Assembly: GCF_049075655.1 (NCBI RefSeq)
Contig: NZ_CP157522.1
Coordinates: 96,001 to 160,000, forward strand
Direction of reading: 5' to 3'
Source: Methanothermococcus sp. Ax23
GTDB lineage: Archaea; AGJL01; Methanococci; Methanococcales; Methanococcaceae
Length of the DNA: 64,000 nucleotides
Below are positions 29,874-59,779 of this stretch, piece after piece. The notes below the pieces were generated by a model, which saw nothing but the letters and a program-made list of their open reading frames with translations, had not been told where the DNA came from and ran no database searches. Made by a program: the position numbers and the translations under genes. Numbering within the stretch: position 1 is the first letter of the stretch; each line of letters starts with the position of its first letter.

Positions 29874-30387
29874 TTAATTTTTGTTTTTTAATTCATCCCT
29901 AATCTCTTTTAAAATTTCTTTCATTTCGTTCTGTCCTTTTATTATAGTTTCTTGCCCTTTTTTAACTTCTTCCAAAATTCCAAATATCATTTTAATATAT
30001 TTAACTCCTTCATCAAGTTTTTTATTCAATCGGAGTGAGCGAAGCGAACGGAGAGCTACGAAAACATTGGTTTTCGTTCAATTCCATTAAATCATCCGCT
30101 GATATTCTATTGATTCCTTTTGGAAATTCAATATATGAATTTAGTTCTTTTTCCTCAATCTCTTCTATTTTGATTAACTCATCCTTTTTTGCCAATGTCT
30201 TAATATTTCTTTTGAATAAATCTTTTATTTCTTCATCATCAAAGTTTGCCAAAATCCTAACTGTTCCATCCTCATAATTATAAACTACTCCATCAATACC
30301 TAAACCTCTCCCAATGTCTTCTATCCTATCTCTAAATCCAACATGCTGGACTTTACCATATATTTTTAACTCGTAAGTTGTCGCCAT
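29874..30387 (-). pseudogene. Acylphosphatase-domain/coiled-coil protein disrupted by a micro-insertion
   Basis: [20 protein letters not shown] fold motif. Removing 52 bp restores a 153 aa ORF ending ..[21 protein letters not shown]. Confidence 0.85.
30031..30076 (-). mobile_element. Double-hairpin micro-insertion with TTCAAT duplication
   Basis: ttcaat at 30025-30030 and 30077-30082 flanks a GC-rich insert containing gagcgaagcga and acgaaaac-attg-gttttcgt. Confidence 0.85.
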
Positions 30388-30544
30388 ATTCTCACCTTTG
30401 ATATTATATTATCGAGCTCATCCTAACCACTTAAAATTAAATCAATATTATCATATATTTTCCCACTATTTTAATATTTCCAAATCTAAAAACCTGAGCT
30501 CATAAAAAATTATCGGAGATCCGATAAAAAAATAAAAATATTAT

Positions 30545-31102
30545 TTAAAACAACTCATCCATTTCATCCAATTCCTTCAAAGTATGCCATTGCTTATCCT
30601 TATCGGATAGATTTGGTTTATCAACAGGCCATTCAATGCCAATGTCTTCATCATTCCAAATTACTCCGCATTCACATTCAGGAGCATATTTATTATCGAC
30701 CTTATAAACTACTTCAGCAGTATCACTTAAAACACAAAAACCATGGGCAAATCCTCGCGGTATGTAGAGCTCATGCTTATTAAACTCAGACAGCACAACC
30801 CCCACCCACTTTCCAAATGTTGGGGAATCTCTCCTTAAATCCACAGCAACATCGTAAATAACTCCCCTAATACACCTAACAATCTTTGCCTGTGCATAAG
30901 GTTCTTTTTGGAAATGCAATCCCCTTAATACCCCATAAGAAGATTTAGAGTGGTTATCCTGAACAAATTCCCCTTTTATGCCAGCATTTTCAAAATCTTC
31001 CTTTTTATAAGTTTCCATAAAAAATCCTCTTTCATCCCCAAAAACCTTAGGTTTTATTAAAATTACTTCTGGAATTTTAGTTTTTATGAATTCAAATGGC
31101 AT
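30545..31102 (-). CDS. rfbC: dTDP-4-dehydrorhamnose 3,5-epimerase
   Basis: DERGFF, QDNHS, LRGLHFQ, GFAHGF. Confidence 0.95.
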   Translation of the reverse strand: MPFEFIKTKIPEVILIKPKVFGDERGFFMETYKKEDFENAGIKGEFVQDNHSKSSYGVLRGLHFQKEPYAQAKIVRCIRGVIYDVAVDLRRDSPTFGKWVGVVLSEFNKHELYIPRGFAHGFCVLSDTAEVVYKVDNKYAPECECGVIWNDEDIGIEWPVDKPNLSDKDKQWHTLKELDEMDELF

Positions 31103-31281
31103 AATATCCCTCCACTTTTATCAATTACCTTTTAAATATTGTTTTTTGTTTATCATATTTGACACTCTGTTGTTTTTATGTCAAATATGTTGGACATGCT
31201 ATATAATACCAATGTTAGAGCTCCAACATTTAAAAAAATTTTTATGATAGGTTTTTTAAATACCCTATTTGGTGATACAGT

Positions 31282-31519
31282 ATGGCACTAATAAAAATTA
31301 CAAGAAACTGTCAAATAACCATCCCTTCTGAGATTAGAAAAAAAATGGGCGTCAAAGAAAGGGATTATCTTGATATAGAAATAGAAAATGGAAAAATAGT
31401 TCTAAAAAAAAATAGAAAAAATAGAAAAAAGAAGGAAAACGATTAAACTTGGTAAAAAAATTACCACTGATGAAATTGGGAAACTCATAGAAGAGGGGAT
31501 AGATGAATGTATGCAGTAA
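31282..31519 (+). pseudogene. AbrB/VapB antitoxin, frameshifted
   Basis: MALIKITRNCQITIPSEIRKKMGVKERD.. AbrB motif. A tandem aaaaaataga duplication near 31405-31430 shifts the frame. Confidence 0.75.
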
Positions 31520-31560
31520 TAGATACAAATGTGTTAATAAATGTAGGAATTCAATATTGA
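31507..31560 (+). pseudogene. VapC/PIN toxin N-terminal stub
   Basis: MYAVIDTNVLI (PIN DTN motif) overlaps the AbrB stop and ends after 17 codons. Confidence 0.7.
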
Positions 31561-31568
31561 AACATTAC

Positions 31569-32462
31569 TTAAATAATCTTTTTTAACTCATTTAAACATT
31601 CATTAACATTTTTCAGTTTAATGCCTAACAATTTTTCAACTTTCCCACTATTTAGTGAAGTGTCTTTTGGTCTATTTGCCTTCCATCCTAATTCGGAGCT
31701 CCGTATAGGTTTTATCAAATCCTTATTTAAATCAAATATTTCAGCGACTTTTAACGCAAACTCATACCTACTTACCTTTTCACCGCCCCCAAAGTGCAAT
31801 AAATCATTAACATCTTTTTCATAAATCTTAATAATTCCATCGGTGAGCTCAGGCACATAGGTTGGGGTGTTCCACTGGTCAGTTACTGCATTTACTTCAT
31901 TTCCCTCTTTTAAGGTATTTAAAACCCACATGAAAAAATTGACTTTAACAGGACTTATAAAGTAAGGGACAGAAATCCTTACAATAGATGTCAAATCATA
32001 ATTTAATTCATTTAAAACCTTTTCCCCTTCTGCTTTTGTCCATCCATAGTAGTTTATGGGATTTACCTCATCATCTTCAACATAATTGCCCTTTTCCCCA
32101 TCAAAAACATAATCTGTGGATATATGGCATAATGGAATATTTAGTTTTTTACATGCTTCACCGATATATCCAACAGCAAGAGCATTTGTTTTATATGCCA
32201 ATTCTCTCTCAGTTTCGCATAAATCCACATTGGTAATAGCCGCAGTATTTATAACAAAATCCGGATTTATACCCATAATAGTTTCTTTTATTTTGTTTTC
32301 ATTGGCAATATCCACAAAATGTTTAGTTATACCGCTATCACTATCAAAAAGCCCTTTATCGCTCCTTGTAATTACATGAACCTTAAAGCCCAAATCATCA
32401 TATTTTTTAACGAGCTCATACCCTATCATACCCAAGCCAATAATTGCTATTTTTTCCCCCAC
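31569..32462 (-). CDS. rfbD: dTDP-4-dehydrorhamnose reductase
   Basis: HISTDYVFDG, PINYYGWTK, RPKDTSL. Confidence 0.92.
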   Translation of the reverse strand: MGEKIAIIGLGMIGYELVKKYDDLGFKVHVITRSDKGLFDSDSGITKHFVDIANENKIKETIMGINPDFVINTAAITNVDLCETERELAYKTNALAVGYIGEACKKLNIPLCHISTDYVFDGEKGNYVEDDEVNPINYYGWTKAEGEKVLNELNYDLTSIVRISVPYFISPVKVNFFMWVLNTLKEGNEVNAVTDQWNTPTYVPELTDGIIKIYEKDVNDLLHFGGGEKVSRYEFALKVAEIFDLNKDLIKPIRSSELGWKANRPKDTSLNSGKVEKLLGIKLKNVNECLNELKKII

Positions 32463-32466
32463 ATTA

Positions 32467-33462
32467 TCACCATTTCAATTTCCAAGGAGTTGGATGGAGA
32501 ACCTTATCATTAATCAGCGGTTTCCACCACCATTCATTATTGAGATACCAATTAACAGTTTCTTTTAACCCCTCTTCAAAATCATACTTTGGCTTCCAGC
32601 CGAGCTCCTTCAATTTTGAAGAATCTAAACTATATCTAACATCATGACCTGGTCTATCTTCCACAAATTCTATCAAATCTGATGGTTTATGCATGAGCTC
32701 CAATATCATTTTAACAATTTCAATGTTCATTTTTTCATGATTTGAAGAGATATTATAAACCTCTCTTTTTTCCCCTTTTTCTAAAACCGTTTCAATCCCA
32801 CTACAATGGTCTAACACATACAGCCAATCCCTAATATTGTCTCCTTTTCCATATATTGGGATTTTTAAATCAGAGTTTGCCCTAATTATTGTTTTTGGAA
32901 TTAATTTTTCTGGAAATTGATATGGGCCGTAATTATTTGTGCATCTCGTTATCTTTGCATTTAAATTATATGTTCTCGCATACCCTAAAACAAGCATATC
33001 ACCGCCTGCTTTACCTGCTGAATAAGGAGAAGATGGCATTAGCCTATCCTTTTCTGTAAATGAACCCTCTTCAATATCTCCATACACTTCATCTGTACTG
33101 ACACCAATAATATTAACATCTGGATTATACTTCCTAATGGCCTCTAAAATTGTATAAACTCCTATAATATTACTTTCTAAAAATGAATAGGGGTCGGATA
33201 TACTTCTATCCACATGAGTTTCAGCGGCAAAATTAACAACGGCATCCACATCCTTAATCAATCCAGAAACTAATTCAAAATCGTTTATATCTCCCTTAAC
33301 GAATGAATATCTTGAATTATCAATGTCTTTTAAATTTTCTAAGTTTGAACCATAACCAAGTTTATCAAGGTTTATAACCTCCCAATCCTTATGTTTGTTT
33401 AAAATATATCTTATGAAATTACTTCCAATAAATCCTGCTCCGCCTGTAACCAACATTTTCAT
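32467..33462 (-). CDS. rfbB: dTDP-glucose 4,6-dehydratase
   Basis: TGGAGFIG, AAETHVDRS, STDEVYG, NNYGPYQFPEK, DRPGHD. Confidence 0.95.
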   Translation of the reverse strand: MKMLVTGGAGFIGSNFIRYILNKHKDWEVINLDKLGYGSNLENLKDIDNSRYSFVKGDINDFELVSGLIKDVDAVVNFAAETHVDRSISDPYSFLESNIIGVYTILEAIRKYNPDVNIIGVSTDEVYGDIEEGSFTEKDRLMPSSPYSAGKAGGDMLVLGYARTYNLNAKITRCTNNYGPYQFPEKLIPKTIIRANSDLKIPIYGKGDNIRDWLYVLDHCSGIETVLEKGEKREVYNISSNHEKMNIEIVKMILELMHKPSDLIEFVEDRPGHDVRYSLDSSKLKELGWKPKYDFEEGLKETVNWYLNNEWWWKPLINDKVLHPTPWKLKW

Positions 33463-33561
33463 TATTCCACCAATTTAATATTTATATATCGTTCTTTCTT
33501 CGTTTTTCTTTTTTTCTTTTTTTCTTTCGTTCTATTGGATTAGCTCGGAAAGGAGTGGGAC

Positions 33562-34434
33562 TTATTTAACGAGCTTTTCCAAATATTTTCCATAATCAGT
33601 TTTTAATAATGGCTCGGCAAGTTTTAGGAGCTCATCCTTTGTTATCCATCCATTATGATAGGCAATCTCTTCCAAACATCCAACCATCAATCCCATTCTT
33701 TTTTCCACTGCTGCAATAAAATTACTTGCTTCCAAAAAACTCTCATGGGTTCCAGCATCAAACCATGCCGTCCCCCTTGGTAAAAGTTTTACCTTTAATT
33801 TATTTCTTTTTAAATACTCATTATTTACATCAGTTATTTCCAACTCTCCTCTCCATGAAGGTTTTATATTTTTCGCAATATCAATAACATTATTATCGTA
33901 AAAGTAAAGACCGATTACTGCATAATTTGAAGGCGGATTTTTCGGTTTTTCAATTATTTCCTTTACATTTCCATTTTCATCAAATTCAACAACCCCATAT
34001 CTTTCAGGGTCTTTTACATACTGACCAAACACCACACCCCCTCCATCTTTTAGGAGCTCCTCTTTTGCATCAAGTAAAAATCCTGTCAATCCACTTCCAT
34101 ATACAATATTATCTCCAAGTATGAGACATACGCTGTCATCCCCTATAAACTCTTCCCCAATAATAAATGCCTCTGCAAGCCCTCTCGGTTCCAGCTGTTC
34201 TTTATATTGTATATTTATTCCCAAATGCCCACCATTTCCTAAAAGTTTTTTATATCTCGGCAAATCCTCAGGTGTTGTTATTATCAATATATCCTTAATT
34301 TTAGACAGCATTAAAACAGATAGTGAGTAATATATCATAGGTTTGTTATATATTGGCATCAGATGTTTATTTCCAGCATAGGTAATGGGATATAACCTAG
34401 TTCCAGAACCTCCCGCTAAAATTATACCTTTCAT
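33562..34434 (-). CDS. rfbA: Glucose-1-phosphate thymidylyltransferase
   Basis: [32 protein letters not shown]. Confidence 0.95.
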
Positions 34435-34512
34435 TATTTCACCATTTTAATATATTTAATGTAATTTATATATTACGATAAACCGCCGGGAAAGCCAACG
34501 ACTTCAGTCGTT

Positions 34513-34547
34513 ATACAAAACATAGTTTTGTAAAATCTCTTACGAGA
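34513..34547 (+). mobile_element. Double-hairpin micro-insertion splitting the IS left-end hairpin
   Basis: tt|atacaaaac-ata-gttttgta-aaatctc-ttac-gaga|tt. Removing it restores ccaacgacttcagtcgttgg. Confidence 0.75.
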
Positions 34548-34644
34548 TTGGATGAGAGGCGGACATTCTATATTCCACACAATCAAAAATTATATGTAAT
34601 TAAATAATATGTAATTAAATATATAAACTATATTTATAAGAACT

Positions 34645-35918
34645 ATGGTGAATTCCATGCAAGTAACCAGAGTGCTGACAATAAACCTAACAAGAAAACT
34701 AACCAATGAACAATTAATAATCATAAACCATTTAACCTATTCAGCATCAAAACTCTGGAATACATCCAACTACGAAGTAATACAGCGAAATATTAAACCA
34801 AATAAAATAGATGTTCAAATGAAGAACAACTTCTGGTTTAAAAATCTTCATTCACAGTCAGCACAGGCAGTATGTCAAAAACTTCAAATTAGACGAAAAC
34901 CTTCGGTTTTCGTTGCTCGCTTGCTACGCAAGCGATTGCATGGCAAAACTACTTCAAACAGCACACTAAAAGACCACGATACCAACCAAAAGATGGACAC
35001 TTTCCCGTAAAATGGAAGAAGCAAGGTTTCAAAATCATAGGCAATAAGTTAAGGTTATCATTATCTAAACAAACTAAAAACTATCTCAAAGAGAAGCATG
35101 GTATCAAGTCCAAGTACTTATGGGTAGATTTATCGAAAACTCTACCGCTTGATACCATGCAGGTTAAAGAAGTTGAGATAGTTCCGCAGACCATCTATGG
35201 GATAACCTACTACATACTTCACTTAATCCATAAGAAACCAGTAATTCAAGAACCTATCAAAGAAGGTAATATACTAAGTATTGATTTAGGAATTAAGAAT
35301 TTAGCAACAGTAGTAACCAATACGGGCAGTGCAGTAATCTACGATGGAAGAAGGTTAATTTCTAAATTCCGATGGTTTGCTAAAAGTAAAGGAAAAATCC
35401 AATCTACCCTAACAAAGCAAGAGTTAAAATATAATAAACGATTATCCCGCTTAACAGTAAGGGAAAAGAATTATACTAAGGATTATCTACATAAAATAAG
35501 TAAAATGATTATCGATTTTGCAGTGGATAACAAAGTTTCAAGGATTGTAATCGGCGAGTTAAACAAAGGCATTTCAAGTATTGACATTGGAGATAGGGTT
35601 AATCAGCAATTGCATAGAATACCTTTTGGTAGGTTAGTAAGTATGATAACATATAAGGCAGAGGAAAAGGGATTAACAGTAGAACAGGTTAATGAAGCTT
35701 ATACTTCTCAAACTTGCAGTAATTGTGGTGTAGTTAAAAAGAGTAATAGGAAGTATAGGGGTTTGTATGTGTGTAGTGAGTGTGGCATGGTTTTGAATGC
35801 AGACATTAACGGGGCTTTGAATATTTTAAAAAAAGTATCGCATAAGGTAGCCCTGAATCTCCTAAACGGAGATAGGGGTAGTGGGCTTGGCAACCCATGT
35901 AGGGTTAGACCCTGCTAA
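34645..35918 (+). pseudogene. tnpB: TnpB RNA-guided nuclease frameshifted by a 47 bp insertion
   Basis: N-terminal SKLWN..LHSQSAQ; RuvC SIDLG / IVIGEL / NADINGA; Zn finger CSNC..CSEC. Removing 47 bp joins both ORFs into 408 aa with no stops. Confidence 0.9.
34891..34934 (+). mobile_element. Double-hairpin micro-insertion with ATT duplication inside tnpB
   Basis: att|ag-acgaaaacc-ttc-ggttttcgt-tgc-tcgcttgc-tac-gcaagcg|att. Confidence 0.88.
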
Positions 35919-36030
35919 AGAACCCCACGACTTTAGTCGTGGGAGTAGGTCAGTTAATGCTAAAATCAAAGGTTTTTTAATCACCTTGAAGGAATTTTTA
36001 ATCCTCCACTACACATAGGATGGTGCCATT

Positions 36031-36774
36031 ATGTTTCTATTCAATGAAAAAATTTCAATAAAGGAAACCAATATAACTTTAAAAACAGAGGCAGAAAAAT
36101 TTATAAAACTTGCAAAAAAAACCATTTTAAGGGAAAGAATAAATCTTGAAAATTATATTTTAAAACATCCTGAATTCCTAACAAGCTATGTCCCAGTAAG
36201 GGTTAGTGTTGATGCACCGAAAATAGTTAAGATAATGGCAAGAGCAGGAGAAAATGCAGATGTTGGACCTATGGCATCTGTTGCAGGAACCATAAGTCAG
36301 ATGGTAGTTGAAAATGCTGTAAAATATGGATGTAAAAATATAATATCGGAGAACGGTGGAGATATAGCACTAAGGGCTGAGAAAGATATTGTGGTTGGGC
36401 TATATGCTGGAACATCTTCATTATCTGGTCAGATTGGATTTAAAATAGAAAAAGAGAAAACTTCAAAAGGATATGGTGTATGCACATCTTCGGGGACTGT
36501 TGGGCATTCTGTAAGCCTTGGAAATGCTGATGCAGTTGTGGTTTTTGCAAAAGAAAGTAGTATAGCAGATGCCGCAGCCACGAGTATAGGAAACTTTGCC
36601 ACCGGAGCTCCTGATGAAGCCATTAATAAATGTTTGGAAAAGGCAGAAGATATTGATTATTTAGACGGCGTTTTTGTCGTTGTTGGAGAATATGCCGGTA
36701 AAATCGGAAAAATACCACAATTGGTTAAAACCGATAAAAAAGTTGCACTTGGAGAGTTTTTTGAGATGATATAA
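36031..36774 (+). CDS. UPF0280 (ApbE-superfamily) protein
   Basis: VGPMASVAG, ENGGDI, CTSSGTVGHSVSLG, ADAAAT. Confidence 0.88.
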   Translation: MFLFNEKISIKETNITLKTEAEKFIKLAKKTILRERINLENYILKHPEFLTSYVPVRVSVDAPKIVKIMARAGENADVGPMASVAGTISQMVVENAVKYGCKNIISENGGDIALRAEKDIVVGLYAGTSSLSGQIGFKIEKEKTSKGYGVCTSSGTVGHSVSLGNADAVVVFAKESSIADAAATSIGNFATGAPDEAINKCLEKAEDIDYLDGVFVVVGEYAGKIGKIPQLVKTDKKVALGEFFEMI

Positions 36775-36803
36775 CAATTATTAATATAATTACAAAATGT
36801 TTT

Positions 36804-37436
36804 TTAGAATATATTTTTTTCCCGGAGCTCCCCTATTATCTCATCATGCACTTCTTCAATGGTCTTTCCAGTGGTATCTATTTGAATATATCCATATTTT
36901 GGTTCAAACAATCTTCTTTCAATGATTTCATGATATTTTTTTCTTACCTTCTCCAACATTTCCTTATTTTCAAATATTTCTTTACTTCTTCCACCCATTC
37001 TTTTAAATGATTCTTCAATATCCACATCTAAAAATATTAAAACATCGGGTTTTTTGGCAAATTTATTGATATTCATGATAAAATCCAATTCAATCCCCTG
37101 AATAGACTGATAAACCATTGAAGAATAAATATATCTATCGCAAACAATGTGGGATTTTTTTAAATTTTGTTCTATATCCACTACATGCTCCACCCTATCT
37201 GCTGCAAACAGCAGTGCAAGTGTTTCTTTTTCGCATTTCGAGCGTAGCGAGGAATGAGCAAGTCCGCAGGATTTGCGTAATTTTTTACCGCTTAATACCT
37301 TTCGTATAAGTTTTCCAATCTCTCCATTTGTAGGTTCGCAGGTGTATTTTCCCTTTATTTTTTCAGAAAGTAGTTTCGACTGGGTAGTTTTTCCGCTTCC
37401 ATCTATTCCTTCAAACACTATGAATTTATTATTCAT
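36804..37436 (-). CDS. tmk: Thymidylate kinase carrying a 15 aa in-frame insertion
   Basis: [31 protein letters not shown]; extra segment [15 protein letters not shown]. Confidence 0.93.
37239..37279 (-). mobile_element. Double-hairpin micro-insertion (AAAT duplication, net 45 bp) inside tmk
   Basis: Minus strand reads aaat|tac-gcaaatcc-tgc-ggacttgc-tcattc-ctcgctacgctcg|aaat. Confidence 0.85.
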
Positions 37437-37569
37437 TTCTTCCACCAAATGCTAAATACTGCTATACACTATACTGTTTATAACTAAAAAGAGAATATAA
37501 TAAAATATATGATATAACAAATCCGCATAATAATATCCATTATAATAATACAGGTTTACAATTATAGAT

Positions 37570-39495
37570 TTATAAATTCTTTAATAATTCAATTTCTTTA
37601 TCCAAATCTGGTTTTCTTATGCTTTTTACTGAAAATTCAAGGTCTTCAAACCTTCTATCTGCTGAACCATGGAATATAAATTCTTCACCAAGTAATGCAT
37701 CCAGGAGCTCCAAATTAGCATCTTTCAATTTATCCATTGGAGTTTCAGTAATTCTTTCCACAGTTCTACCGTATAATCTGCAAGTAATGTTGCCTGTGCC
37801 ATCATCCACGGTTAATGTAGCTACTGCAACTTCCCTAGGTTCAACTTCTCCGCATTCATCACAATTATAACTACCTTCGCTTAAAACTGCTTTTTTACCA
37901 CAATTTGGGCACAAATGCAATATTAAATCCTGTTTTCTGTAATCTACAATTGCCCCTCTAATTTCAGCAGTTTCTCCTTCTTCAAGCTCTTTTATAAACT
38001 TCCTATTTACTTTTATATCTATACCTTCGGGATTGACAACAATTCTTCCAAATCTACCTATGTTTAAATCAACAAATTCCCCGCTATCCTTCACATATCC
38101 ATGAATTATTTTTACAATATCTCCCTCTTTTATGTCGAGCTCCGCATCCTTGTCCCATAACACCAATCTGATTTTTCCAGTTTCATCTTCTATCATCATG
38201 TTTCTTACTTTTCCTGTGGTTCCGTCGCCTCTTTCAAATTCATTAATATCATATATAACTGATACCCTTCCAACTGTTGTAATGTCATTTTTTGATTCTT
38301 CATCTAATTTATAAATATCATTTATTTTAATTATGTTTTCAGCGTATTCAGGAGCTCCGATGGATTCATCCTTTATTACTTTTGAATCAGATTGTGCAGA
38401 TAATGATATTATTTCATTCCCTTCAAAATCGGTGTAGGATTTAACCTTACAGTTTGTGATTTTTACGGCGTCTCCTTCTTTTATATCATTTAACGCATTG
38501 GTATTTCTTCCCCAAAATGATATTCTAACATTTCCGCTGTTGTCCATTAAATTAATTTCCTGAACATCCACCTCCCTATCATCAAATTTAACCGTTCTTG
38601 GATTTGAAATATGGGTAATTCTACCCTTTACAATTACAACATCATCCTTGTAGTTTGGGAGCTCCGATATATCCACCTCTGGAACCTCTGCAACTTCTCC
38701 TTTATTTAATATATTTATGGTATTGACATTTATATCAAGTCCTCTTAATCCTTCCTTCACATAACCTTTTACCTCAACAACGTCCCCCTTATTTACCTCA
38801 ATTTCTGCCAAATCATCCCAGAGAGTGCCCCTTATTGTTCCCGTATCATCTTTTAGTATGAAGGATTTTACCCTTCCAACTGACCCATCTTTTCTTGGGA
38901 ATTCTCTCTTATCATAGGATGCTGTAATTTCTCCCTTTATTGTGGCAGGCATATTTGGGGTGAGCTCTGAAATACTATAATATTCCTTCACTATGGGATA
39001 CTTAGATTCATCGTAATCTTCAAGTTTTTCAATGTTTAAATCAGAACCGCTGTTTAATTCGATTCTATTATTCCATTTTCTTGAAAATGCGTTTGTTATT
39101 TCAATAACATCCCCTTTTTTTAAATTATCAACCAGTTGCACCTTATCATTCCAAAGTGTTAATCTAATGGAACCTGTATTATCTGCAATAATTATGCTCC
39201 TTACTTTTCCCTTTGTTCCATCTTTTCTGCTAAATTCCTTTACGTCAGAAATATCCATAATTTTTCCAGTGACTTCTACATTTCTCTGACCTTCGGCTAT
39301 ATCTTTAATAGAAAAGCCATATTCTTCATCATCGTCATATTCTAAATCTAAGCCTAAATCACTGGCAATTATTGAAATTGCAGCTTTTTCATCCATTAAT
39401 CCAGAGTGTTCATTTATTACTTCATTAATTTTAGTTTCAAGTTCTTTTTCAGACATTTTTGTCAATATTTTTTGTTTTAATTTTTCAATATCCAT
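37570..39495 (-). CDS. rpa: Replication protein A (multi-OB-fold ssDNA-binding protein with Zn finger)
   Basis: Four DxTG.IR.TLW OB-fold repeats plus CPNC..CDEC. Confidence 0.92.
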   Translation of the reverse strand: MDIEKLKQKILTKMSEKELETKINEVINEHSGLMDEKAAISIIASDLGLDLEYDDDEEYGFSIKDIAEGQRNVEVTGKIMDISDVKEFSRKDGTKGKVRSIIIADNTGSIRLTLWNDKVQLVDNLKKGDVIEITNAFSRKWNNRIELNSGSDLNIEKLEDYDESKYPIVKEYYSISELTPNMPATIKGEITASYDKREFPRKDGSVGRVKSFILKDDTGTIRGTLWDDLAEIEVNKGDVVEVKGYVKEGLRGLDINVNTINILNKGEVAEVPEVDISELPNYKDDVVIVKGRITHISNPRTVKFDDREVDVQEINLMDNSGNVRISFWGRNTNALNDIKEGDAVKITNCKVKSYTDFEGNEIISLSAQSDSKVIKDESIGAPEYAENIIKINDIYKLDEESKNDITTVGRVSVIYDINEFERGDGTTGKVRNMMIEDETGKIRLVLWDKDAELDIKEGDIVKIIHGYVKDSGEFVDLNIGRFGRIVVNPEGIDIKVNRKFIKELEEGETAEIRGAIVDYRKQDLILHLCPNCGKKAVLSEGSYNCDECGEVEPREVAVATLTVDDGTGNITCRLYGRTVERITETPMDKLKDANLELLDALLGEEFIFHGSADRRFEDLEFSVKSIRKPDLDKEIELLKNL

Positions 39496-39608
39496 AATTT
39501 CACCATATTAAACGTAGTGAGAGATTACGAAACCTTGTTTCGTTGTTTTATTTTTTAATGCAATTTAAAATCTCTGATTTTTATTATTCTGAGTATTAGT
39601 GAGAGATT

Positions 39609-39645
39609 GGACAAAAATCAGAAGATTTTTGTAGCACCTTTCGTG
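39609..39645 (+). mobile_element. Double-hairpin micro-insertion with ATT duplication upstream of rpa
   Basis: att|gg-acaaaaatc-agaa-gatttttgt-ag-cac-ctttc-gtg|att. Confidence 0.65.
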
Positions 39646-39964
39646 ATTAAACTCTCTCTTTGAGATTTAGATTATATCGAAGATAATTAGAAAATCCCTA
39701 TTTCTTAAAATCAATATTAATAATCATTAAATAATATATACTATGAAATCATAATAAAACTATTAAATAAATTTATAAATATTGGACCTATGACTATATT
39801 AAGTTAATCATAATATTATAAAATAAAGACTATAAAATATTTTATATATGATAAAATTAATTATTTCTTAGTTTCTTAGCAGCGATAAATATAAGTAAAA
39901 AGAGATATATCATAATCCAAAATATTAATCAACAAAAATAAGTCAAAAAAAGGATAGTGAGAAA

Positions 39965-50417: not shown

Positions 50418-50425
50418 TGATTTAT

Positions 50426-51414: not shown

Positions 51415-51787
51415 ATCCTTACTATTAACTATTATTTTTTTATAATATTGGTTATTCTTTTTCTATTTTTGAAAATATCCCCTCTACTTTCGTCGTAAAT
51501 GTCTATTATTTTTGATATAATTAATAAATTTAAATAAATGAAATTATGGGGATTTTTAAAATATCTATACTATATTTAGTTATTTTATGGTTTTCCTTGC
51601 TAATTTTTTAAATTTTTAAAAAATACTTATAAAATATCGTTTATTTCTTTAAATATTTGTAAATTATCTGTCGTAGACGAACCCTAATACTATATATACT
51701 CTAAAAATCAATGTGATTCGAGATTCGAAAGTTTTAAATAGAAGAAATGCAAAGGTATTTAGTGTAAAATAAGGAATATTTTAAACT
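51415..51787 (+). promoter_or_regulatory. CRISPR leader with BRE/TATA-like element
   Basis: AT-rich, ORF-free segment. gaaagTTTTAAATA at 51727-51740 lies about 48 bp before the first repeat. Confidence 0.7.
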
Positions 51788-54700
51788 GTTAAAATCAGAC
51801 CATAGTGGGATGGAAATTCAAAGAAGGATGCAATAGGTAGGAAAATAGAAAGGGGTTAAAATCAGACCATAGTGGGATGGAAATCGTGAAAAGGATAATA
51901 TATATATATTAGCTCTATGGCGTTAAAATCAGACCATAGTGGGATGGAAATATATCAGTTGGATTCAGTATCAATTTTGGCGTTTGAAGTTAAAATCAGA
52001 CCATAGTGGGATGGAAATATCCAGCCTTTATCATCATTATATGTAATTCTCGGACGTTAAAATCAGACCATAGTGGGATGGAAATATTTAACATATGTAT
52101 AGGTACGCAATATACCAAATCCGTTAAAATCAGACCATAGTGGGATGGAAATGTTTTTCTTATGCTTTTGTTTTCCCAAAGCTTTGCTTTGTTAAAATCA
52201 GACCATAGTGGGATGGAAATATTCTTTTATATTTACTTCGTATATGTCTTTTTCAATGTTAAAATCAGACCATAGTGGGATGGAAATTTCTCTCTATTGT
52301 ATTACTATGGTAATACTAATATATAGTTAAAATCAGACCATAGTGGGATGGAAATCAAAATGTAAATGATGCCCTTAAATCCGTTTTAAAGGGTTAAAAT
52401 CAGACCATAGTGGGATGGAAATGCGTCATAGTCACACTTACATATAGTGTCTATATTTTGGTTAAAATCAGACCATAGTGGGATGGAAATAATGAAAGTG
52501 CGTCAAAATCAATTATTTCAATTTCGTTAAAATCAGACCATAGTGGGATGGAAATAAAAAGCGTATTAGACGATATTAATCTCAACATGTTAAAATCAGA
52601 CCATAGTGGGATGGAAATTTTTTTTCCAAAGTTAATTATAAATATTGTTTTTTTTAGTTAAAATCAGACCATAGTGGGATGGAAATTCGTCAGTTGGTTC
52701 AAGTGTTCCGTCCTCTATGGTTAAAATCAGACCATAGTGGGATGGAAATCAATAACTGCTTCATTAATTGTAATTGTAACATCTAGTTAAAATCAGACCA
52801 TAGTGGGGTGGAAATTTAAATCAAATACGATTATTGTATTGTTCTTTTGTAAAGTTAAAATCAGACCATAGTGGGATGGAAATTTTATAGGAGAGGGGTT
52901 TGTTTTTTCCCACACTCCCACGTTAAAATCAGACCATAGTGGGGTGGAAATTTAATTCGTCTAAGTTCATAATATCACCTTTCATTCATTCGTTAAAATC
53001 AGACCATAGTGGGATGGAAATTTTGATTCTTGGTTTATTATTCCAACATGTCCAGATTGTTAAAATCAGACCATAGTGGGGTGGAAATTTCATTATCCAA
53101 CAATAGCGTAATTGATGACGATTTAGTTAAAATCAGACCATAGTGGGATGGAAATAATATTGAGATTGTAGGGATGAGTAGTAGCATATCCCCGTTAAAA
53201 TCAGACCATAATGGAAATATAAAAACTGCAGAAGAAATATATAAACACTTGAAAAAGGTTAAAATCAGACCATAGTGGGATGGAAATTTTTATGACTGAA
53301 ACATATTCTTTTATGGTATATTTGTTAAAATCAGACCATAGTGGGATGGAAATAATATATTTTCATACTATTTAAACCTTACTAAAAAATAGTTAAAATC
53401 AGACCATAGTGGGATGGAAATTTTCATGAAGAAGAACTAAAAAATGATGAGGATTTAAGTTAAAATCAGACCATAGTGGGATGGAAATATTTATTGGCTC
53501 GCTTCGCTCGCCAATCAATAGGAACCTGTTAAAATCAGACCATAGTGGGATGGAAATTCTCTTGCGTATTTGTGGGGTGGTGGGGGTTCTCTTCCGTTAA
53601 AATCAGACCATAGTGGGATGGAAATCTATCTTATGGGGGTATTCTGGAATTACGAGAGTTTGTTAAAATCAGACCATAGTGGGATGGAAATTCAAAACAA
53701 GGTTGGGCTTTTGCCCTGACAATATATGAAGTTAAAATCAGACCATAGTGGGATGGAAATTAGGAAGTTTATTCGTTCTATTCTGATCGATAAACTCGTT
53801 AAAATCAGACCATAGTGGGATGGAAATTTTGGATGTTTAATTGAAAGTGGATTTATTAAAGTTAAAATCAGACCATAGTGGGATGGAAATATGGGAATGA
53901 GTTAAAATACTGCGTATTTGTTCTGAACGTTAAAATCAGACCATAGTGGGATGGAAATCATATAAAAAAAGCGGCAGAGATGAGGCTCACAGGTTTGTTA
54001 AAATCAGACCATAGTGGGATGGAAATTCATTAATTCAATAATGATGTTAGACTTTGTTTTTACCGTTAAAATCAGACCATAGTGGGATGGAAATGTTTGG
54101 ATCGTTGCCAGGATGAAAACAACAGTAGGTTAAAATCAGACCATAGTGGGATGGAAATGATGGTCCTGTTGAGTTTATTGGGTGATTGGGTGATTGTTAA
54201 AATCAGACCATAGTGGGATGGAAATACTGCATATCTTCGTCCTTGTTTTGCATTATCAATATAGTTAAAATCAGACCATAGTGGGATGGAAATATCTGTA
54301 ATTACGTAATCGATTAAATAGAAATCGTTAAAATCAGACCATAGTGGGATGGAAATCTAACAACGTTGTTGGTAAAATCATGGGATAATCCAAAGTTAAA
54401 ATCAGACCATAGTGGGATGGAAATTTTCTTTTAAAAATTCATGGTAGAGCCTGTGTGGTTAAAATCAGACCATAGTGGGATGGAAATTTTCTTTTAAAAA
54501 TTCATGGTAGAGCCTGTGTGGTTAAAATCAGACCATAGTGGGATGGAAAGTATTTTCAGATATTGGCGTTATTGTCAAATATTGAGAGGTTAAAATCAGA
54601 CCATAGTGGGATGGAAAGCGATTTGGGTATTGGCGGATTACTTGAGGGGGTGGTAGTTAAAATCAGACCATAGTGGGATGGAAATTCCTGCTGGTGCAAG

Positions 54701-55266
54701 GACAGTCATCAGGGGCTGTTGTGTTAAAATCAGACCATAGTGGGATGGAAATGGTGAAATGATACTAAACGCATTTAATTTTATATGGTTAAAATCAGAC
54801 CATAGTGGGATGGAAATATCGTCTGGCAATCTAGATAATATTTCTGCTGGGCAGTTAAAATCAGACCATAGTGGGATGGAAATTTGTCGTTCTTTATATT
54901 GTTAAAATCAGACCATAGTGGGATGGAAATTGATGTTGAACCAAGTAGCATTGAAGAATTCAAAGAGTTAAAATCAGACCATAGTGGGATGGAAATTATT
55001 TTGTTGAATACATTTTTATTTTTCGAGATAATTGTTAAAATCAGACCAAGTGGGATGGAAATAACTCAATAATTAACTTAACGGATAATGAATATAGAAA
55101 GTTAAAATCAGACCATAGTGGGATGGAAATAGAAATTATAGAGCGTATGGCAGATATACTTTTAGAGGAGTTAAAATCAGACCATAGTGGGATGGAAATA
55201 CGATATTGAATGCACAAGTAAGTTATGGAAGTTGGTGTTAAAATCAGACCATAGTGGGATGGAAAT
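51788..55266 (+). CRISPR. CRISPR array, about 53 repeats / 52 spacers
   Basis: 30 bp repeat GTTAAAATCAGACCATAGTGGGATGGAAAT. Spacers are mostly 33-40 nt. Count is manual. Confidence 0.98.
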
Positions 55267-55586
55267 AAAATCAAAGGATGGCAAGATAAATATTTACATT
55301 ACAGTTATAAATCATCTCTATGGAGTTTATTCAAATGAGCTCAGGACATATGGAAAAATACAAAATGTATAAAAAGGACTATAACAACCTAAGGCATACA
55401 ACAATAGTAGCTCACGGGTTTAAAGGGATAAAAAATTATTAAATAAAATGCTAACAGATAATCCAAATTAATAAAGATATTGATAAGTATTTCAAAACTA
55501 TTAAATCAGAATTCTTCAATATTGCAGACAAAGATGAATCGAATATATTTGACAAACTAAATGATGAGATAATATATAATCTATAA
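55267..55586 (+). pseudogene. Possible decayed C-terminus of a CARF-HEPN (Csx1/Csm6-like) ribonuclease
   Basis: 55374-55430 translates to KDYNNLRHTTIVAHGFKGI (HEPN R-x6-H-like, AHGF). Another frame ends ..NIFDKLNDEIIYNL*. Broken by stops and frameshifts. Confidence 0.45.
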
Positions 55587-55771
55587 TATTTTTTTATTTT
55601 ATAGTTAAATAAACTAAAAAATCCCAATTTAATAAAAACCTTAAATTTTTACCTATTGGAATAGAAATTTTTTTATTGGCTATTCAAAATATTTTATATT
55701 TATGTTGAATATATGGAAAATCATAACCGAACCATCTCTAAGGTATAATTATAGTTTATTCAAGTGATAGC

Positions 55772-56683
55772 ATGCAATTTAAAGAAAAAGAAAAATTATT
55801 GGCAGAAATAATTAAAAAAATAAATAAAATAAGGAAGGATTTAAACCTAAAAAATACGAATTTTGAAATAGTGGATATAGATATAAAAACAAATAAAGAA
55901 AATGAATCTATATTTTTAATAATCTACGCTTTAACCCGTTCTGATAAATCCACAATCATAGGACCCGGAGGGTGGGTCGTTGGAAAATTAAGAGAAGATT
56001 TAAAACACCAATTTGACAAAAATTTAATAATAAGAGTAGAAAACTATATTGATAAAATTATATTAAAAGAAAAAAAGGAAGAAGCAATTTTATTTTTAAA
56101 CAAAATCGGATTAAAAAAAGGTCAAAAAATAATGGTTTTAGTTCAATGCGATTATGATTTATCCATTTTGGATTTCTTGAAAAGATATTTTAATGTATAT
56201 GCCGTATCTTTGGATATTGGAACTGTTGTATTACCCCCAAATAATAAAAAGATAATTGAAGATTATTTCATAAGCAATAACATACCTTATAATTTTATAA
56301 AACCTGTTGAATTAAGTAGAAAAGACATACTGGACGCATTAAATGATTATCCCTGTGATATCATCTGTGGTAATATGAACAAATACCTTATAAAGGAATG
56401 TGTGGATAAAAATATAAAATACATTATAAATAATCACATATCCGAGAATTACAAAAAAGATGAATCCACTGGAACACATATTTTAAATTTTTTAAATTTA
56501 TTTCCATTGAAAAGAAACTCTTTAAGAAACCCTTACCTAAACTGTCCTTTAATGATACAATCCTGCAAAAAAAATAATAATATAAAAATAAAATTGATAA
56601 ACAAAATAGTGTCAAATACATACGATGGATTAATCGAGCCAACAGAAGGTTCTGAAAAAATTATGAAAATAATAAATTCATAA
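55772..56683 (+). CDS. Conserved methanogen protein with KH-like N-terminus and degenerate PP-loop-like domain
   Basis: DKSTIIGPGGWVVGKL (KH GxxG) and C-terminal GLIEPTEG. Confidence 0.6.
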   Translation: MQFKEKEKLLAEIIKKINKIRKDLNLKNTNFEIVDIDIKTNKENESIFLIIYALTRSDKSTIIGPGGWVVGKLREDLKHQFDKNLIIRVENYIDKIILKEKKEEAILFLNKIGLKKGQKIMVLVQCDYDLSILDFLKRYFNVYAVSLDIGTVVLPPNNKKIIEDYFISNNIPYNFIKPVELSRKDILDALNDYPCDIICGNMNKYLIKECVDKNIKYIINNHISENYKKDESTGTHILNFLNLFPLKRNSLRNPYLNCPLMIQSCKKNNNIKIKLINKIVSNTYDGLIEPTEGSEKIMKIINS

Positions 56684-56772
56684 AATTTAACCATATTATT
56701 TATCATAAAACTAATTATAATTCATATTATAATTATATTTATATAATTTATTCCAAACATACTGGTGATTTC

Positions 56773-57561
56773 ATGATTATTACCATAGCCTCTGGAAAGG
56801 GTGGCGTAGGAAAAACTACAACTTCTGCAAACTTAGGGGTTGCACTATCAAAAATTGGAAAAAAAACCCTTATTGTAGATGGGGACATTTCAATGGCTAA
56901 TTTAGGTTTAATATTTAATTTTGAAAAAAAGAGACCTTCATTACATGATGTTCTTTCGGGAGAATGTGATGTAAAGGATGCAATATATAAACATAAAACC
57001 GGAGCTCACATACTACCTACAAGTTTATCAATAGAAGGATATAAAAAATCTGATTTGGATTTATTTCCCGAAGTTATATCCGATGTTGCCGATGACTACG
57101 ACTATGTAATAATAGATGCACCGGCTGGATTAAACAGGGACATGGCCATCCATTTGGCAATAGCAGATAAGGTTTTAATTGTTCTAACACCTGAGCTCTT
57201 TTCAATAGCCGATGGAATTAAAATAAAACAAAGTAGTGAAATGGCAGGAACTTCAATATTGGGTGCTGTTTTAAATAGAACTGGAAGAGATTTTGGAGAA
57301 ATGGGGATTGATGAAATTGAAATGATTGTTAATGAAAAAGTTATTAGCACCATACCTGAGGATGAGAATATAAGAAATGCCACATTGAAAAGAATGAGTG
57401 TAATTGAGTATTCTCCAAAATCCCCGTCATCAAAGGCATATATGGAGCTAGCACTTAAAATTATTGGCTCTTATGTAGATATGAATAAAATTGAAGAAGT
57501 TTATAATAAAAGTTTTATTGATAAAGTAAAAAGGATTTTTTTAAGATTTAAAAATAAATAA
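56773..57561 (+). CDS. minD: MinD-family ATPase
   Basis: ASGKGGVGKTT, DGDISMANL, IDAPAG, IPED. Confidence 0.9.
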   Translation: MIITIASGKGGVGKTTTSANLGVALSKIGKKTLIVDGDISMANLGLIFNFEKKRPSLHDVLSGECDVKDAIYKHKTGAHILPTSLSIEGYKKSDLDLFPEVISDVADDYDYVIIDAPAGLNRDMAIHLAIADKVLIVLTPELFSIADGIKIKQSSEMAGTSILGAVLNRTGRDFGEMGIDEIEMIVNEKVISTIPEDENIRNATLKRMSVIEYSPKSPSSKAYMELALKIIGSYVDMNKIEEVYNKSFIDKVKRIFLRFKNK

Positions 57562-57601
57562 TAATAATATTTATATATTATTATTTAAAAAAAGGTGTAG
57601 C

Positions 57602-58171
57602 ATGATTAATAATACCCCATATAAAGAAGAATTTAAAATAGTTTTGATAGGTCCAGAAAATTCTGGAAAATCGGCACTCTTGAATGCTATTTTTGGAAGG
57701 TATATCTCAAATGTTTCGGAAGTTGGAGGAACTACGAAGAGACCAGTAAAAAAGTTTTGGGGAAAATTAAAATACGGTAAGTCAAAAAAGGAGCCGAAAA
57801 TTGCAAATATATCCTTCGTAGATTTAGGCGGGCTTTATGCAGGTGAAAAAAAATCTCCAATAATGGTTGGAAAAATTCTCGAAGAGACTTATAAGGAGAT
57901 GGAAAAGGCAGATATAATCATCCATGTTGTCGATGGAGAAAAAGGTCTATCAAAAAGCTTTGAAAAACTTCATCATTTACTTAAATATCGATACCAAAAG
58001 CCCATTATAGTTGTTATCAATAAATGTGATTTACTTGATAACAATAAAAGAGATTATTTAAAAAATCATATTGAAGAAAGACTGGAAAATAAGGTTATTT
58101 TTACATCAACAATAACCTATGAAGGCATTACAAATCTAATTGATACCATTATAAAATTCCTAAAAAAGTGA
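57602..58171 (+). CDS. Small Era-like GTPase
   Basis: G1 GPENSGKS, G2 GTT, G3 DLGG, G4 NKCD. Confidence 0.85.
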   Translation: MINNTPYKEEFKIVLIGPENSGKSALLNAIFGRYISNVSEVGGTTKRPVKKFWGKLKYGKSKKEPKIANISFVDLGGLYAGEKKSPIMVGKILEETYKEMEKADIIIHVVDGEKGLSKSFEKLHHLLKYRYQKPIIVVINKCDLLDNNKRDYLKNHIEERLENKVIFTSTITYEGITNLIDTIIKFLKK

Positions 58172-58217
58172 ATTAAATAATTATTATATATGATAAAAGT
58201 AGTTATATGGTGAAAAT

Positions 58218-58646
58218 ATGGTATTTGAATCAATAAAGGAGTTAATTAAAGGAGGAACAAATAATAAACCAAAATTAGAAACTAGCCCAGTAGCAATTGA
58301 GGATTATGTCGAAGTTCCTGTTAAGATTCATGATGACAGCAATATTATAAAAATAAAGGTTTGCGAGCTCGATGATTATAGGGATGCCACAGACATATCT
58401 GTAATGATTGATGCAGGATATATTGTTATTGCAAATACCATAAATTTAGAAAGAGATATGGACGAGGATTACGCAAAATTGCTGGCATATTTGAAGAATA
58501 AAGTTTCAGAATGTGATGGAACAGTAATTAAAGTATGTGAAAGTAAAATAATGGCAGTTCCCAACAATGTGGTAATTGAAAAATTAATTAAAGAACCTGA
58601 GGAAGCATCTGAAATAGAAGGTAGCGAGGAATGGGAGATAAAATAA
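58218..58646 (+). CDS. sepF: Archaeal SepF
   Basis: EDYVE, IKVCEL, GYIVI, P.NV.I pattern; lies in a minD operon. Confidence 0.75.
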   Translation: MVFESIKELIKGGTNNKPKLETSPVAIEDYVEVPVKIHDDSNIIKIKVCELDDYRDATDISVMIDAGYIVIANTINLERDMDEDYAKLLAYLKNKVSECDGTVIKVCESKIMAVPNNVVIEKLIKEPEEASEIEGSEEWEIK

Positions 58647-58661
58647 AAAAGAGAGGAAAAA

Positions 58662-59525
58662 ATGGAAGATATTCACATAATGGAGGCTCTTGGGAAATCT
58701 AAGGTGGTTGTAAAAAATGGGAAAGTTGTTGAAGTTGGAGAACCTTTGATAAGGTATTGTCCATTGTTTGCAAAACATAGGGGCATGGATGAATTAAATA
58801 AAGAAACCATTAAAAAGAATATAGAATTTAGAATAAAAGATTTTGGATTATTTACAGAAAATAGGGTTGTTGAATCCAGGGAATGCATAGTTGGATTTGG
58901 AACGTCAGAGATATTCATGACTGCATTGAAAAATAAATTGCTTGATGCCGTGGTGATTGTTAGCGACTGTGCTGGAACAGTAATAACAAATAATCCATAT
59001 CTAGTTCAGGGGTTGTGTGGGCGAATATCTGGAATAATAAAAACTACGCCAATTCCAAAAGTTATTGAAAAAATAGAAAATGCTGGCGGCGTTGTGTTAA
59101 ATAAGGATAATGCAGAAATCAACCAATATAAGGGAGTTGAACGGGCATTGGAATTAGGTTATAAAAAAATAGGAGTAAGCATTGCCAATTTGGAAGATGC
59201 TAAAAAAATTAAAGAATTGGAAAAAACATTTGCTGAAAAATCTGTAAAAATTATAACCTTTGGCGTTCATACAACAGGGTATAATAAACCAGATGTTGAA
59301 AAATATTTGAAATACCTTGATTTAACCACGTGCTGTGCTTCAAAAGGTGTTTTGGAAGCAGTAAAAGGACATGTGAAGGTTCAAGTGGGAAAATCTGTTC
59401 CAATATTTGCACTTACTCAGTATGGGAAAGAATTAATATTGGAAAGAATGGAGGAATTGGAAAGACCGATATTGATTACACCTCATGATGAGCTCCCAGA
59501 TGTTAAAGGTAATTTTTATATCTAA
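58662..59525 (+). CDS. Methanogenesis marker protein 8 (DUF2099)
   Basis: HIMEALGK, YCPLF, FGTSEI, DCAGT, VQGLCGRISG, VHTTG, CASK. Confidence 0.85.
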   Translation: MEDIHIMEALGKSKVVVKNGKVVEVGEPLIRYCPLFAKHRGMDELNKETIKKNIEFRIKDFGLFTENRVVESRECIVGFGTSEIFMTALKNKLLDAVVIVSDCAGTVITNNPYLVQGLCGRISGIIKTTPIPKVIEKIENAGGVVLNKDNAEINQYKGVERALELGYKKIGVSIANLEDAKKIKELEKTFAEKSVKIITFGVHTTGYNKPDVEKYLKYLDLTTCCASKGVLEAVKGHVKVQVGKSVPIFALTQYGKELILERMEELERPILITPHDELPDVKGNFYI

Positions 59526-59589
59526 GTGAATTACTCTTTTACTTTTATTTTCAATTGTATTAAATTTAATAATTATTTATTTTTCATTA

Positions 59590-59779
59590 TTTTTATCAAA
59601 TATATACTTGAATACAGCTTTTTGAGCGTGTAATATAATTTCCAGCGCAACCTTTAAAAAAGGTTGCATCCAAAGTCCAATACTCACTATCGCTCGTATT
59701 GGAACCTAAAATTGAACATTTACTTTTTATCAAATATATACTTAAACACAGCCTTTTGAGCGTGTAATCTATTTTCAGC
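59590..59779 (-). repeat. Diverged ~57 bp duplicate of the argF 3' end (59590-59646 vs 59724-59779) with a hairpin pair in between
   Basis: The two copies align directly. Hairpins gcaaccttt/aaaggttgc (59647-59667) and tccaatac/gtattgga (59676-59703) lie between them. Confidence 0.85.

Follow-up and report, generated by a model that had tools for sequence, protein, structure and literature searches.

A non-coding, tagged two-hairpin unit of the Methanococcales that is gained or lost at many unrelated sites

The RPE repeats of Rickettsia are selfish palindromes of about 100-150 bp that lie in frame in conserved protein genes, where they are kept as peptide segments, and the archaeal MJRE repeats, which Suyama, Lathe and Bork reportedly described from one genome in FEBS Lett in 2005, are said to average about 100 bp. 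MJRE1-3 of Methanocaldococcus jannaschii are palindromic repeats, some of which lie in coding regions with the frame intact, according to the passages devoted to them in two papers (PMC2229807, PMC2996958). Here we consider a family of GC-rich units of 42-57 nt, each made of a 5-nt tag, a first hairpin (B), a 2-nt linker and a second hairpin (A), which was noticed in a 64-kb stretch of DNA from Methanothermococcus sp. Ax23 (the window, positions 96001-160000 of the main contig, C1 or NZ_CP157522.1) and was searched for in the whole genome (G000: 1.66 Mb, 31.9% G+C, plus a second contig, C2, of 7.7 kb; 98.9% complete) and in its relatives.

A preliminary description of the window had named MJREs and RPEs as analogues, which is a reasonable analogy. 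The MJREs belong to the same archaeal order and are palindromic, and matches to the present family come from 13 of the 17 genomes of g5, a genus of the Methanocaldococcus type, some of the copies standing in open reading frames (ORFs) that stay open. The present unit differs in being 42-57 nt long with its tag, in having mapped empty sites and in being found in two families of the order, and MJREs may be chains that contain such two-hairpin modules. RPEs are bacterial, longer and unrelated in sequence, the common trait being in-frame copies that are kept in proteins. Yeast mitochondrial GC clusters (e.g. GC42) are GC-rich hairpin units of about 40 nt in an AT-rich genome, with short flanking repeats, constrained hairpins, units that merge and shuffle and a sporadic presence or absence; by contrast with the present family, they are found in a eukaryote organelle, have an unrelated sequence and have intron-encoded endonucleases or reverse transcriptases as suspects (PMC4478555), genes of a kind that was not found here. 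The palindromes of the REP/RAYT system measure 20-40 nt and bear at one end a tetranucleotide tag that is unpaired (GTAG, against TTAG in the present family), are often paired or clustered, lie in some cases within genes and are thought to act as single-stranded hairpins, but they are bacterial, and the text of the survey names no archaeal case (PMC3733652). The tag of the present family is neither GTAG nor CGTC, its unit holds two different hairpins and no Y1 transposase is found in G000. A classical MITE (miniature inverted-repeat transposable element) of the DDE type has terminal inverted repeats and a duplication of fixed length, neither of which is seen here, and an element resembling a short interspersed element or a retron needs a reverse transcriptase, for which G000 has no PF00078 match. 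The kind of element is already known from REP, RPE, MJRE and GC clusters, to which the present family adds a case and not a new category; no description of a tagged two-hairpin unit in Methanococcales was found in the literature searched, the original MJRE paper and supplements lying outside that search, so that an earlier description is possible. How short palindromic repeats spread is an open question for REPs without RAYTs, RPEs, MJREs and mitochondrial GC clusters, and the present family is an unusually clean and tractable case: its unit measures about 45 nt and has exact ends, filled and empty sites can be paired many times, also between natural genomes that are nearly identical, and the signature of folded DNA is clear.

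The main finding comes from twelve events (a to l) in which filled and empty homologous sequences could be compared, nine in the genome or its relatives and three against metagenome contigs. They show that many sites unrelated to one another have gained or lost a discrete unit that does not code and that conserves its structure, in some cases recently. The preliminary description had supposed a very small, non-coding element without terminal inverted repeats, the structure of which is kept while its sequence varies, and the alignment, the covariation and the empty sites all agree with this. It had also taken five sites of the window (near 30031, 34513, 34891, 37239 and 39609) as insertions of one family and a hairpin pair near 59647 as related to them; the first four of these six sites have empty homologues, the fifth is a candidate copy and the last belongs to a different repeat family. 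The features of the window are listed in Table 1.

Table 1. Hairpin units and the associated insertion sequence in the window (window coordinates)
Feature	Position	Strand	Description
Double-hairpin copy	30031..30082	-	tag ATTGA; hairpin B ACGAAAAC/GTTTTCGT; linker AG; GCTTCGC-type second module
TnpB-only IS200/IS605-family copy	34477..35953	+	inserted after TTAC; OrfB_IS605 and Cas12f1-like TNB domain
Divergent double hairpin, 37 nt	34511..34549	+	TAT-ACAAAAC/GTTTTGT, then AATCTC/GAGATT; TT repeated
Canonical copy	34888..34934	+	ATTAG, ACGAAAACC-TTC-GGTTTTCGT, TG, CTCGCTTGC-TAC-GCAAGCG
Degenerate copy, tag ATTAC	37235..37283	-	45 nt, in frame (15 codons) in thymidylate kinase; AAAT repeated
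Candidate degenerate copy in spacer	39605..39648	+	ATTGG, ACAAAAATC/GATTTTTGT, AG, 3-bp second stem; z -4.1
Hairpin pair of a different repeat family	59645..59705	+	z -6.0; not of the ATTAG family

Four of the events lie in the window. The insert at 30031 (event a) disrupts the C-terminal part of an acylphosphatase-domain gene (Pfam Acylphosphatase) and is filled in the window and in the G012 homologue, while four of the six aligned sequences (G010, G003 and two G000 paralogues) are empty; the gain is of 52 nt including one ATTGAA, which is repeated at 30025-30030, and its removal restores the empty reading GAATTGAATAAA. At the left end of the insertion sequence (IS), the 37-nt insert of event b (one TT included) stands directly 3' of the end hairpin and folds well (z -6.1). 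Among 19 aligned IS/MITE left ends, 13 are filled and 6 empty; 10 of the filled ends come from the IS and MITE of the window, and the other 3 from another, diverged family of IS that carries nearly the same insert. That two IS families share the position of the insert, and that empty copies are scattered among the filled ones, would be expected from precise loss or from site-specific gain. The canonical copy (event c) is a frame-breaking insertion of 47 nt within tnpB, filled in seven IS copies and empty in two, as well as in a diverged copy, and a full tnpA-tnpB relative of the window IS in G015 is uninterrupted at the same site. The duplication had been read there as ATT; the insertion is real, and the empty copies (CAAT/AGCATGG, the slash marking the site) show that the repeat is AT. 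In the thymidylate kinase gene (Thymidylate_kin 4.4e-42) the gain of event f, of 45 nt with one AAAT included, leaves ORF 36804-37448 open and is absent from the G003, G012 and G010 orthologues.

The other events extend this to the rest of the chromosome and to the relatives. A second tnpB site (event d, gain of 48 nt) is filled in three copies and empty in three, and the IS/MITE right end (event e, gain of 51 nt, one A repeated) is filled in 5 of 14 aligned sequences and empty in the other 9. In ordinary genes, G010 has a copy of 48 nt, in frame, in a gene of the IF-2B family (event g, AT repeated) that is absent from G000, and a gain of 50 nt at C1:66266, in the inter-domain linker of a thiamine-pyrophosphate enzyme (event h), is absent in 6/6 relatives, all of which have ATTAG at the site, so that ATTAG is repeated there. 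Event i (C1:281381) is a gain of 57 nt in another IS, four paralogues of which do not have it, with two changed bases at the junction. Events j to l concern metagenome contigs 96-100% identical to G000 that carry copies where G000 has none, and this identity implies a recent insertion or loss within a natural population: for example, contig L132 (event j) has a 48-nt copy in a gene, at the place that corresponds to C1:1591073-1591075, with one flank identical at 395/395 positions, and L138 (event k) shows a net gain of 45 nt. Skips in contigs at 30030-30089 and 34883-34938, on the other hand, come from paralogues. Two other readings of such gaps were rejected: removal of the 47 nt from RNA, suggested by a skip of 34887-34935 in one metatranscriptome contig, is explicable by empty IS copies that exist as DNA, and the reading of frame-breaking copies as introns with a bulge-helix-bulge motif finds, on inspection, no motif-forming complementarity in the flanks of 34888-34934.

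The anatomy, junctions and loops of the unit were counted over 77 distinct copies from at least 20 genomes. The tag is ATTAG in 44 of the 77, others including ATCAG, ATTAA and ATTGA, and the second module may alternatively be a GCTTCGC-type mini-module (CTCTTCGCTTCGCTCCG), which reads GCGAAGC on the other strand. When the unit is read from the tag, its first bases are AT(T/C)(A/G)(G/A) and its last is the final G in the stem of hairpin A, a reading that fits at least 9 of the 12 filled/empty events. The base that follows the last G is an A, pairing with the T before the stem of hairpin A, in 76 of 77 copies, and many copies then run into further hairpins, giving chains. Empty sites without the tag are seen in four events or more (c, d, e and g among them), with the readings CAAT/AGC, CTAT/ATT, CTAA/AGAACC and GGGC/AGTG, and the tag is therefore imported there with the element and is not a pre-existing flank; one site, C1:66266 of event h, does have a pre-existing ATTAG.

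Target duplications had been presented as a regular feature of these insertions, which the junctions do not support. The repeats in events a to i are of 6, 2, 2, 0-1, 1, 4, 2, 5 and 0-1 nt, and in 46 of the 77 copies the bases after the last G repeat the tag for one base only. They do so for at least three bases in 17/77 copies (22%), against 4.5% at control offsets, the first A being forced, and for five or six in 3/77. A target duplication is thus present in a minority of copies and has no fixed length, which we read as microhomology or as a preference for tag-like A/T-rich targets and not as a staggered cut; that variable junction repeats argue against a DDE enzyme with a fixed stagger had been rightly pointed out, since they span 0-6 nt across events. 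The two sides of the hairpin B foot are strictly coupled: base 5 of the tag and base 1 of the linker are G-T in 59 copies and A-A in 13, with 0 exceptions, and base 3 of the tag and base 2 of the linker are T-G in 55, T-A in 9 and C-A in 10, but never C-G. As these classes differ in their stems, the coupling has outlived much divergence, and it is of the kind that would be expected if a protein read the tag together with the hairpin foot. A similar coupling is known for the guide and cleavage sequences of IS608.

Structural statistics were computed on an alignment of 85 matches (81 distinct) fitted to a covariance model, a fitting that somewhat favours structure. Pairing is seen in this alignment for 97.1% of the 1289 cells that make up the stems, the value for shuffles being 82.8%, and 0/500 shuffles reach any observed measure; 14 of 17 pairs show two-sided changes, with a covariation score of 0.366 vs 0.129 in shuffles, and sliding the stem partners lowers pairing to 33-48%. 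One-sided changes that keep the pair, G-U wobbles included, occupy only 10 of the 1289 cells, and the arms are for this reason considered true Watson-Crick palindromes. Among 135 hairpins of the 77 copies, 101 have three-base loops. Read along the strand of the tag, 73 of these loops have the form C-TNC-G, which is C-GNA-G in the complementary strand, and another 9 have the form C-GNA-G directly; in some copies the loop of hairpin B is flipped (5 GAA vs 59 TTC loops). Mini-hairpins of DNA with the sequence d(GCGAAGC) or with C-GNA-G triloops have an exceptional stability. Copies inside ORFs are sense in four cases and antisense in three, and many others lie just downstream or upstream of genes, with no fixed position or direction relative to these; a search of the 64-kb window with Rfam at the gathering score gave 0 matches. 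The scarcity of G-U pairs, the C-GNA-G loops, the presence in both gene directions and the lack of an Rfam match together favour folded DNA over structured RNA. GC skew in G000 tracks gene direction and yields no replichore map. In C1:560000-1270000, a segment delimited post hoc, 15 of the 16 listed model matches are on the minus strand, and elsewhere 14 are plus and 13 minus.

Individual sites of the window differ in how well they are recognised and folded, folding being scored as single-stranded DNA energy against shuffles (z). The canonical copy (34888-34936) is the top match of the covariance model, at 77.3 bits and E 1.4e-14, and the sole strong match among the six sites; its fold, at -16.9 kcal/mol (z -6.6), is equalled by 0/200 shuffles. 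The copy of event a is recovered by the sequence-profile search with nhmmer (30029-30082, E 4.6e-7), the covariance model giving only E 0.23, and its good folding is limited to hairpin B (z -2.2). The sites at 34513, 37239, 39609 and 59647 are found by neither nhmmer nor the covariance model; the insert at 37239 folds no better than shuffles (z -0.38), and the orthologous spacers of the candidate at 39605..39648 in G003 and G012 are too diverged to align.

Using the covariance model (R1, seeded with alignment A2 of eight clear copies), we scored 150 of 457 first-look candidates in G000 and obtained 58 full-length matches at E<0.001. Empty sites and further copies above background, the absence of which would have spoken against the preliminary description, thus both exist. 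Of the 58 matches, 36 correspond to four insertion events multiplied by IS/MITE copying (7 at one tnpB site, 3 at the second tnpB site, 23 near the IS/MITE right end and 3 in another TnpB family, at its 3' end), the other 22 being separate loci. By a simple motif search, the hairpin-B motif with at most 1 mismatch per arm is found at 60 places in the chromosome, and short hairpins containing G+C are in excess overall (1982 observed vs 1133 and 1164 in two Markov shuffles). In a panel of 41 genomes, 40 of Methanococcales including G000 and one outgroup, matches at E<=0.001 occur in 22/41, with copy numbers from 1 to 57 and the most copies in G000; the outgroup genome, the only test outside the order, gave no match. 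Within the family of G000, 8 of 22 other genomes have matches, and in the other family 13 of 17, these being of genus g5, with 1-10 model matches per genome. At E<=1e-5 matches remain in 20/40 genomes and in 0/7 of genus g3, and genomes that hold dozens of copies stand beside complete genomes of relatives that hold none. A 25-nt pattern gave 0 matches in a viral contig collection and 1 match in a genome contig collection that clearly leaves out near relatives.

Nearly identical 47-nt units are present in both families, partly within an rve-type IS common to G017 and G034, and the transposase genes that harbour copies belong to four IS types without relation to one another. Such genes are dispensable, and IS copying multiplies the element and probably exports it between genomes. 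In ordinary genes the copies form extra peptide loops in conserved proteins (thymidylate kinase, the IF-2B-family protein, the thiamine-pyrophosphate enzyme and an archaeal ATPase), and elsewhere they split genes (tnpB and the acylphosphatase-domain gene) in a way easily mistaken for frameshift errors in annotation. The archaeal ATPase_2 (MJ1010-like) gene has an in-frame copy with similar flanks in four g5 genomes (L031, L032, L119, L122) and in metagenome contigs L135, L140 and L143, contig L130 matching at the left flank only; because the flanks are similar across the four genomes and three contigs, this copy is regarded as an old insertion kept in the protein.

Copies often adjoin the end hairpins of IS200/IS605-type elements. 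The window IS (34477..35953), the tnpB of which is broken, holds two micro-insertions and is the parent of the MITE with about 25 copies; its own end hairpins are distinct from the double hairpins beside them, which are optional, and all left ends of the IS and MITE are preceded by TTAC. This TnpB-only IS is present at about 35 other places of G000 (about 10 long copies and about 25 MITE derivatives), and in most of the long copies the 47-nt insert interrupts tnpB. Both ends of another TnpB family (418-455 aa; C1:199623-200975, 336414-337759 and 1308500-1309806) bear a double hairpin; the two face opposite ways, and that on the right is situated within the 3' end of tnpB. In the panel, the TnpB signature domain is above cut-off in 19/41 genomes, of which 16 have the element, as do 6 of the 22 genomes without TnpB (1-3 copies each), and all 15 genomes with at least five copies have TnpB; as the genomes are kin and IS elements carry copies, this link is taken as an association and not as a cause.

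The preliminary description had proposed nick-primed insertion by an HUH or a reverse-transcriptase-like enzyme. No gene of either type was found: the 98.9%-complete G000 has no match to RVT_1 (PF00078) or Y1_Tnp (PF01797), and Y1_Tnp is matched in only 7/41 genomes, with only three genes that look intact. The second contig was considered as a source of a nicking enzyme and rejected, since its largest reading frames have no HUH Rep and only weak, below-cut-off helicase-type matches, and it carries no copy of the element. On that contig (L129), positions 5713-7731 joined with 2-1711 form a frame that runs off both ends and would encode about 1240 aa if the contig is circular, with weak, below-cut-off Pfam matches to DEAD/ResIII helicase families only.

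We consider it rather probable that the family is a non-autonomous mobile element of the Methanococcales, the active form of which would be a folded single strand of DNA that an enzyme specific for its structure cuts and joins in trans. The folded single-stranded form and the setting of the ends by an enzyme are what we infer from the features above, and in particular the constant ends, the tag-linker coupling and the left-end insert shared by two IS families point to an enzyme that recognises the ends. A copy arrives as one unit, from the tag to the last stem G, and lands in A/T-rich DNA directly before an A, often part of AT, ATT or a tag-like pentamer, leaving a junction with a 0-6 nt repeat and sometimes a few changed bases. 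Copies persist in spacers, beside existing hairpins at IS ends, in transposase genes and in ordinary genes; transposase genes multiply the resident copies and probably carry them between genomes, and in-frame copies in ordinary genes persist as extra peptide loops. The folded strand would be processed in trans much as by the Y1 HUH enzymes of IS200/IS605 and REP. Several results weigh against this proposal. The insertion rule of IS200/IS605, by which a fixed flanking motif stays outside, fails, because the empty sites are without the tag. The lack of a Y1_Tnp match in G000 extends to most carriers: of the 21 further genomes with the element just 6 have such a match, leaving 16/22 without. The tag-linker coupling and the loop bias could be inherited from founder subfamilies instead of being selected. 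No polymorphism is seen at the window sites in contigs from three runs of evidently the same strain, and no movement was observed. Finally, the junctions of events j, k and l are unclean, with three substitutions at most 6 nt from the junction in L132, an untidy 3' junction in L138 and, in event l, a copy in L131, L133 and L145 where G000 has a different short palindrome, and they look more like repair than like the work of a transposase.

The main rival dispenses with a dedicated enzyme and invokes errors of replication or repair, either template switching at stalled forks between repeats that form hairpins, or the capture of nuclease-resistant hairpin fragments at breaks by microhomology-mediated end joining. 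It would account for junction repeats of 0-6 nt with nothing beyond one A in 46 of the 77 copies, for changed bases at some junctions, for the shuffling of modules (the second modules of G000 and G003, the flipped B loops) and the frequency of chains of at least three hairpins, for the many copies beside pre-existing hairpins, and for the lack of a candidate among the Y1_Tnp, RVT_1 and second-contig searches in G000; however, the same two unit ends recur in independent events at unrelated targets, where copy-choice should bring donor flanks that vary, both families of the order contain 47-nt units that are almost the same, and a homology of 2-6 nt is very little for so frequent an unaided recurrence, and we consider this rival unlikely, if a serious possibility. 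Another tentative idea, to which we give a minor chance, is a new kind of DNA-structure-specific transposition, in which a folded strand of about 45 nt, with its C-GNA-G mini-hairpins and the tag read along with the hairpin B foot base, is cut out and pasted before an A by an enzyme outside the Y1 HUH, DDE and reverse transcriptase families, or inserts by means of host replication or repair proteins only; if so, no smaller mobile unit of DNA would have been defined, and the family could serve as a model of how REP, RPE and organelle GC-cluster repeats spread. Derivation from IS200/IS605 ends, as in PATE-type miniatures moved by a Y1 TnpA where one is present and now mostly fossils, is suggested by the double hairpin directly after the left-end hairpin of a full tnpA-tnpB IS of G015, homologous to the window IS, by another about 130 nt upstream of a tnpA remnant in G010, by the presence of the element in each of the 6 Methanococcales genomes in which Y1_Tnp is matched, and by a common architecture of hairpins without inverted terminal repeats or regular duplication. 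We nevertheless judge it improbable. The hairpins beside IS ends are secondary insertions, and the family is not derived from resident IS ends, because empty IS copies exist; the tag is imported, so that there is no flanking target motif, and the unit is much smaller than any known left plus right end; no element lies near the intact tnpA loci L074 and L075 of the other family (G024 and G032; best E 0.74 and 1.2); the window IS inserts after TTAC and not ATTAG; and recent polymorphism is seen in the population of a genome without tnpA.

Reverse transcription of a small structured RNA into nicked targets is very improbable: variable short duplications are typical of target-primed reverse transcription, and the same idea has been put forward for yeast mitochondrial GC clusters (PMC4478555), but RVT_1 is not matched in G000, G-U pairs are nearly absent, the three-base C-GNA-G loops are not RNA tetraloops, copies lie in both directions relative to genes and there is no A-tail. 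We give similarly little credit to an immobile signal acting in cis, be it a terminator, a site bound by a protein or an element of RNA stability, which would be ancestral where present and deleted elsewhere; the high sequence conservation across two families and the many copies just up- or downstream of genes would suit it, whereas copies are found inside conserved coding sequence where 3 to 6 orthologues are without them and in transposase genes of four unrelated IS types, with no fixed position or direction relative to genes, and no Rfam family is matched in the window.

Some further observations concern single sites and related hairpins. The substitutions at the L132 junction resemble a short co-converted or mutagenic repair tract. 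At an orthologous site in G000 (C1:1276528-1276576) and G003 (C52, L057) the tag and hairpin B are the same and the second module is different: that of G000 is of the GCTTCGC type, while G003 has a CTCGCTTAC hairpin, as if modules had been swapped or one spot had received insertions repeatedly. At C1:560180-560400, 605300-605420, 1524230-1524300 and 776900-777020, between three and six short hairpins, different from one another, follow each other in chains; several have ACGAAA/ACAAAA stems and TCGA-type joints, and they may be composites of the same modules. In the window, a lone hairpin-B-like unit (ATT-ACGAAAC-CTT-GTTTCGT, 39525-39545) lies about 80 nt before the candidate at 39605, just downstream of a replication-protein-A-like gene. 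The second hairpin-pair family, to which 59645..59705 belongs, consists of GCGCAACCTTT..AAAGGTTGC followed by CCAATAC..GTATTGG and has about 20 dispersed copies, together with a tandem array of at least seven units with a 112-nt period at C1:869101-869863. The pair at 59645..59705 is flanked by an imperfect (88.5%) direct duplication of 60 nt (59587-59646 and 59720-59779), which includes the 3' end of a carbamoyltransferase gene (OTCace).

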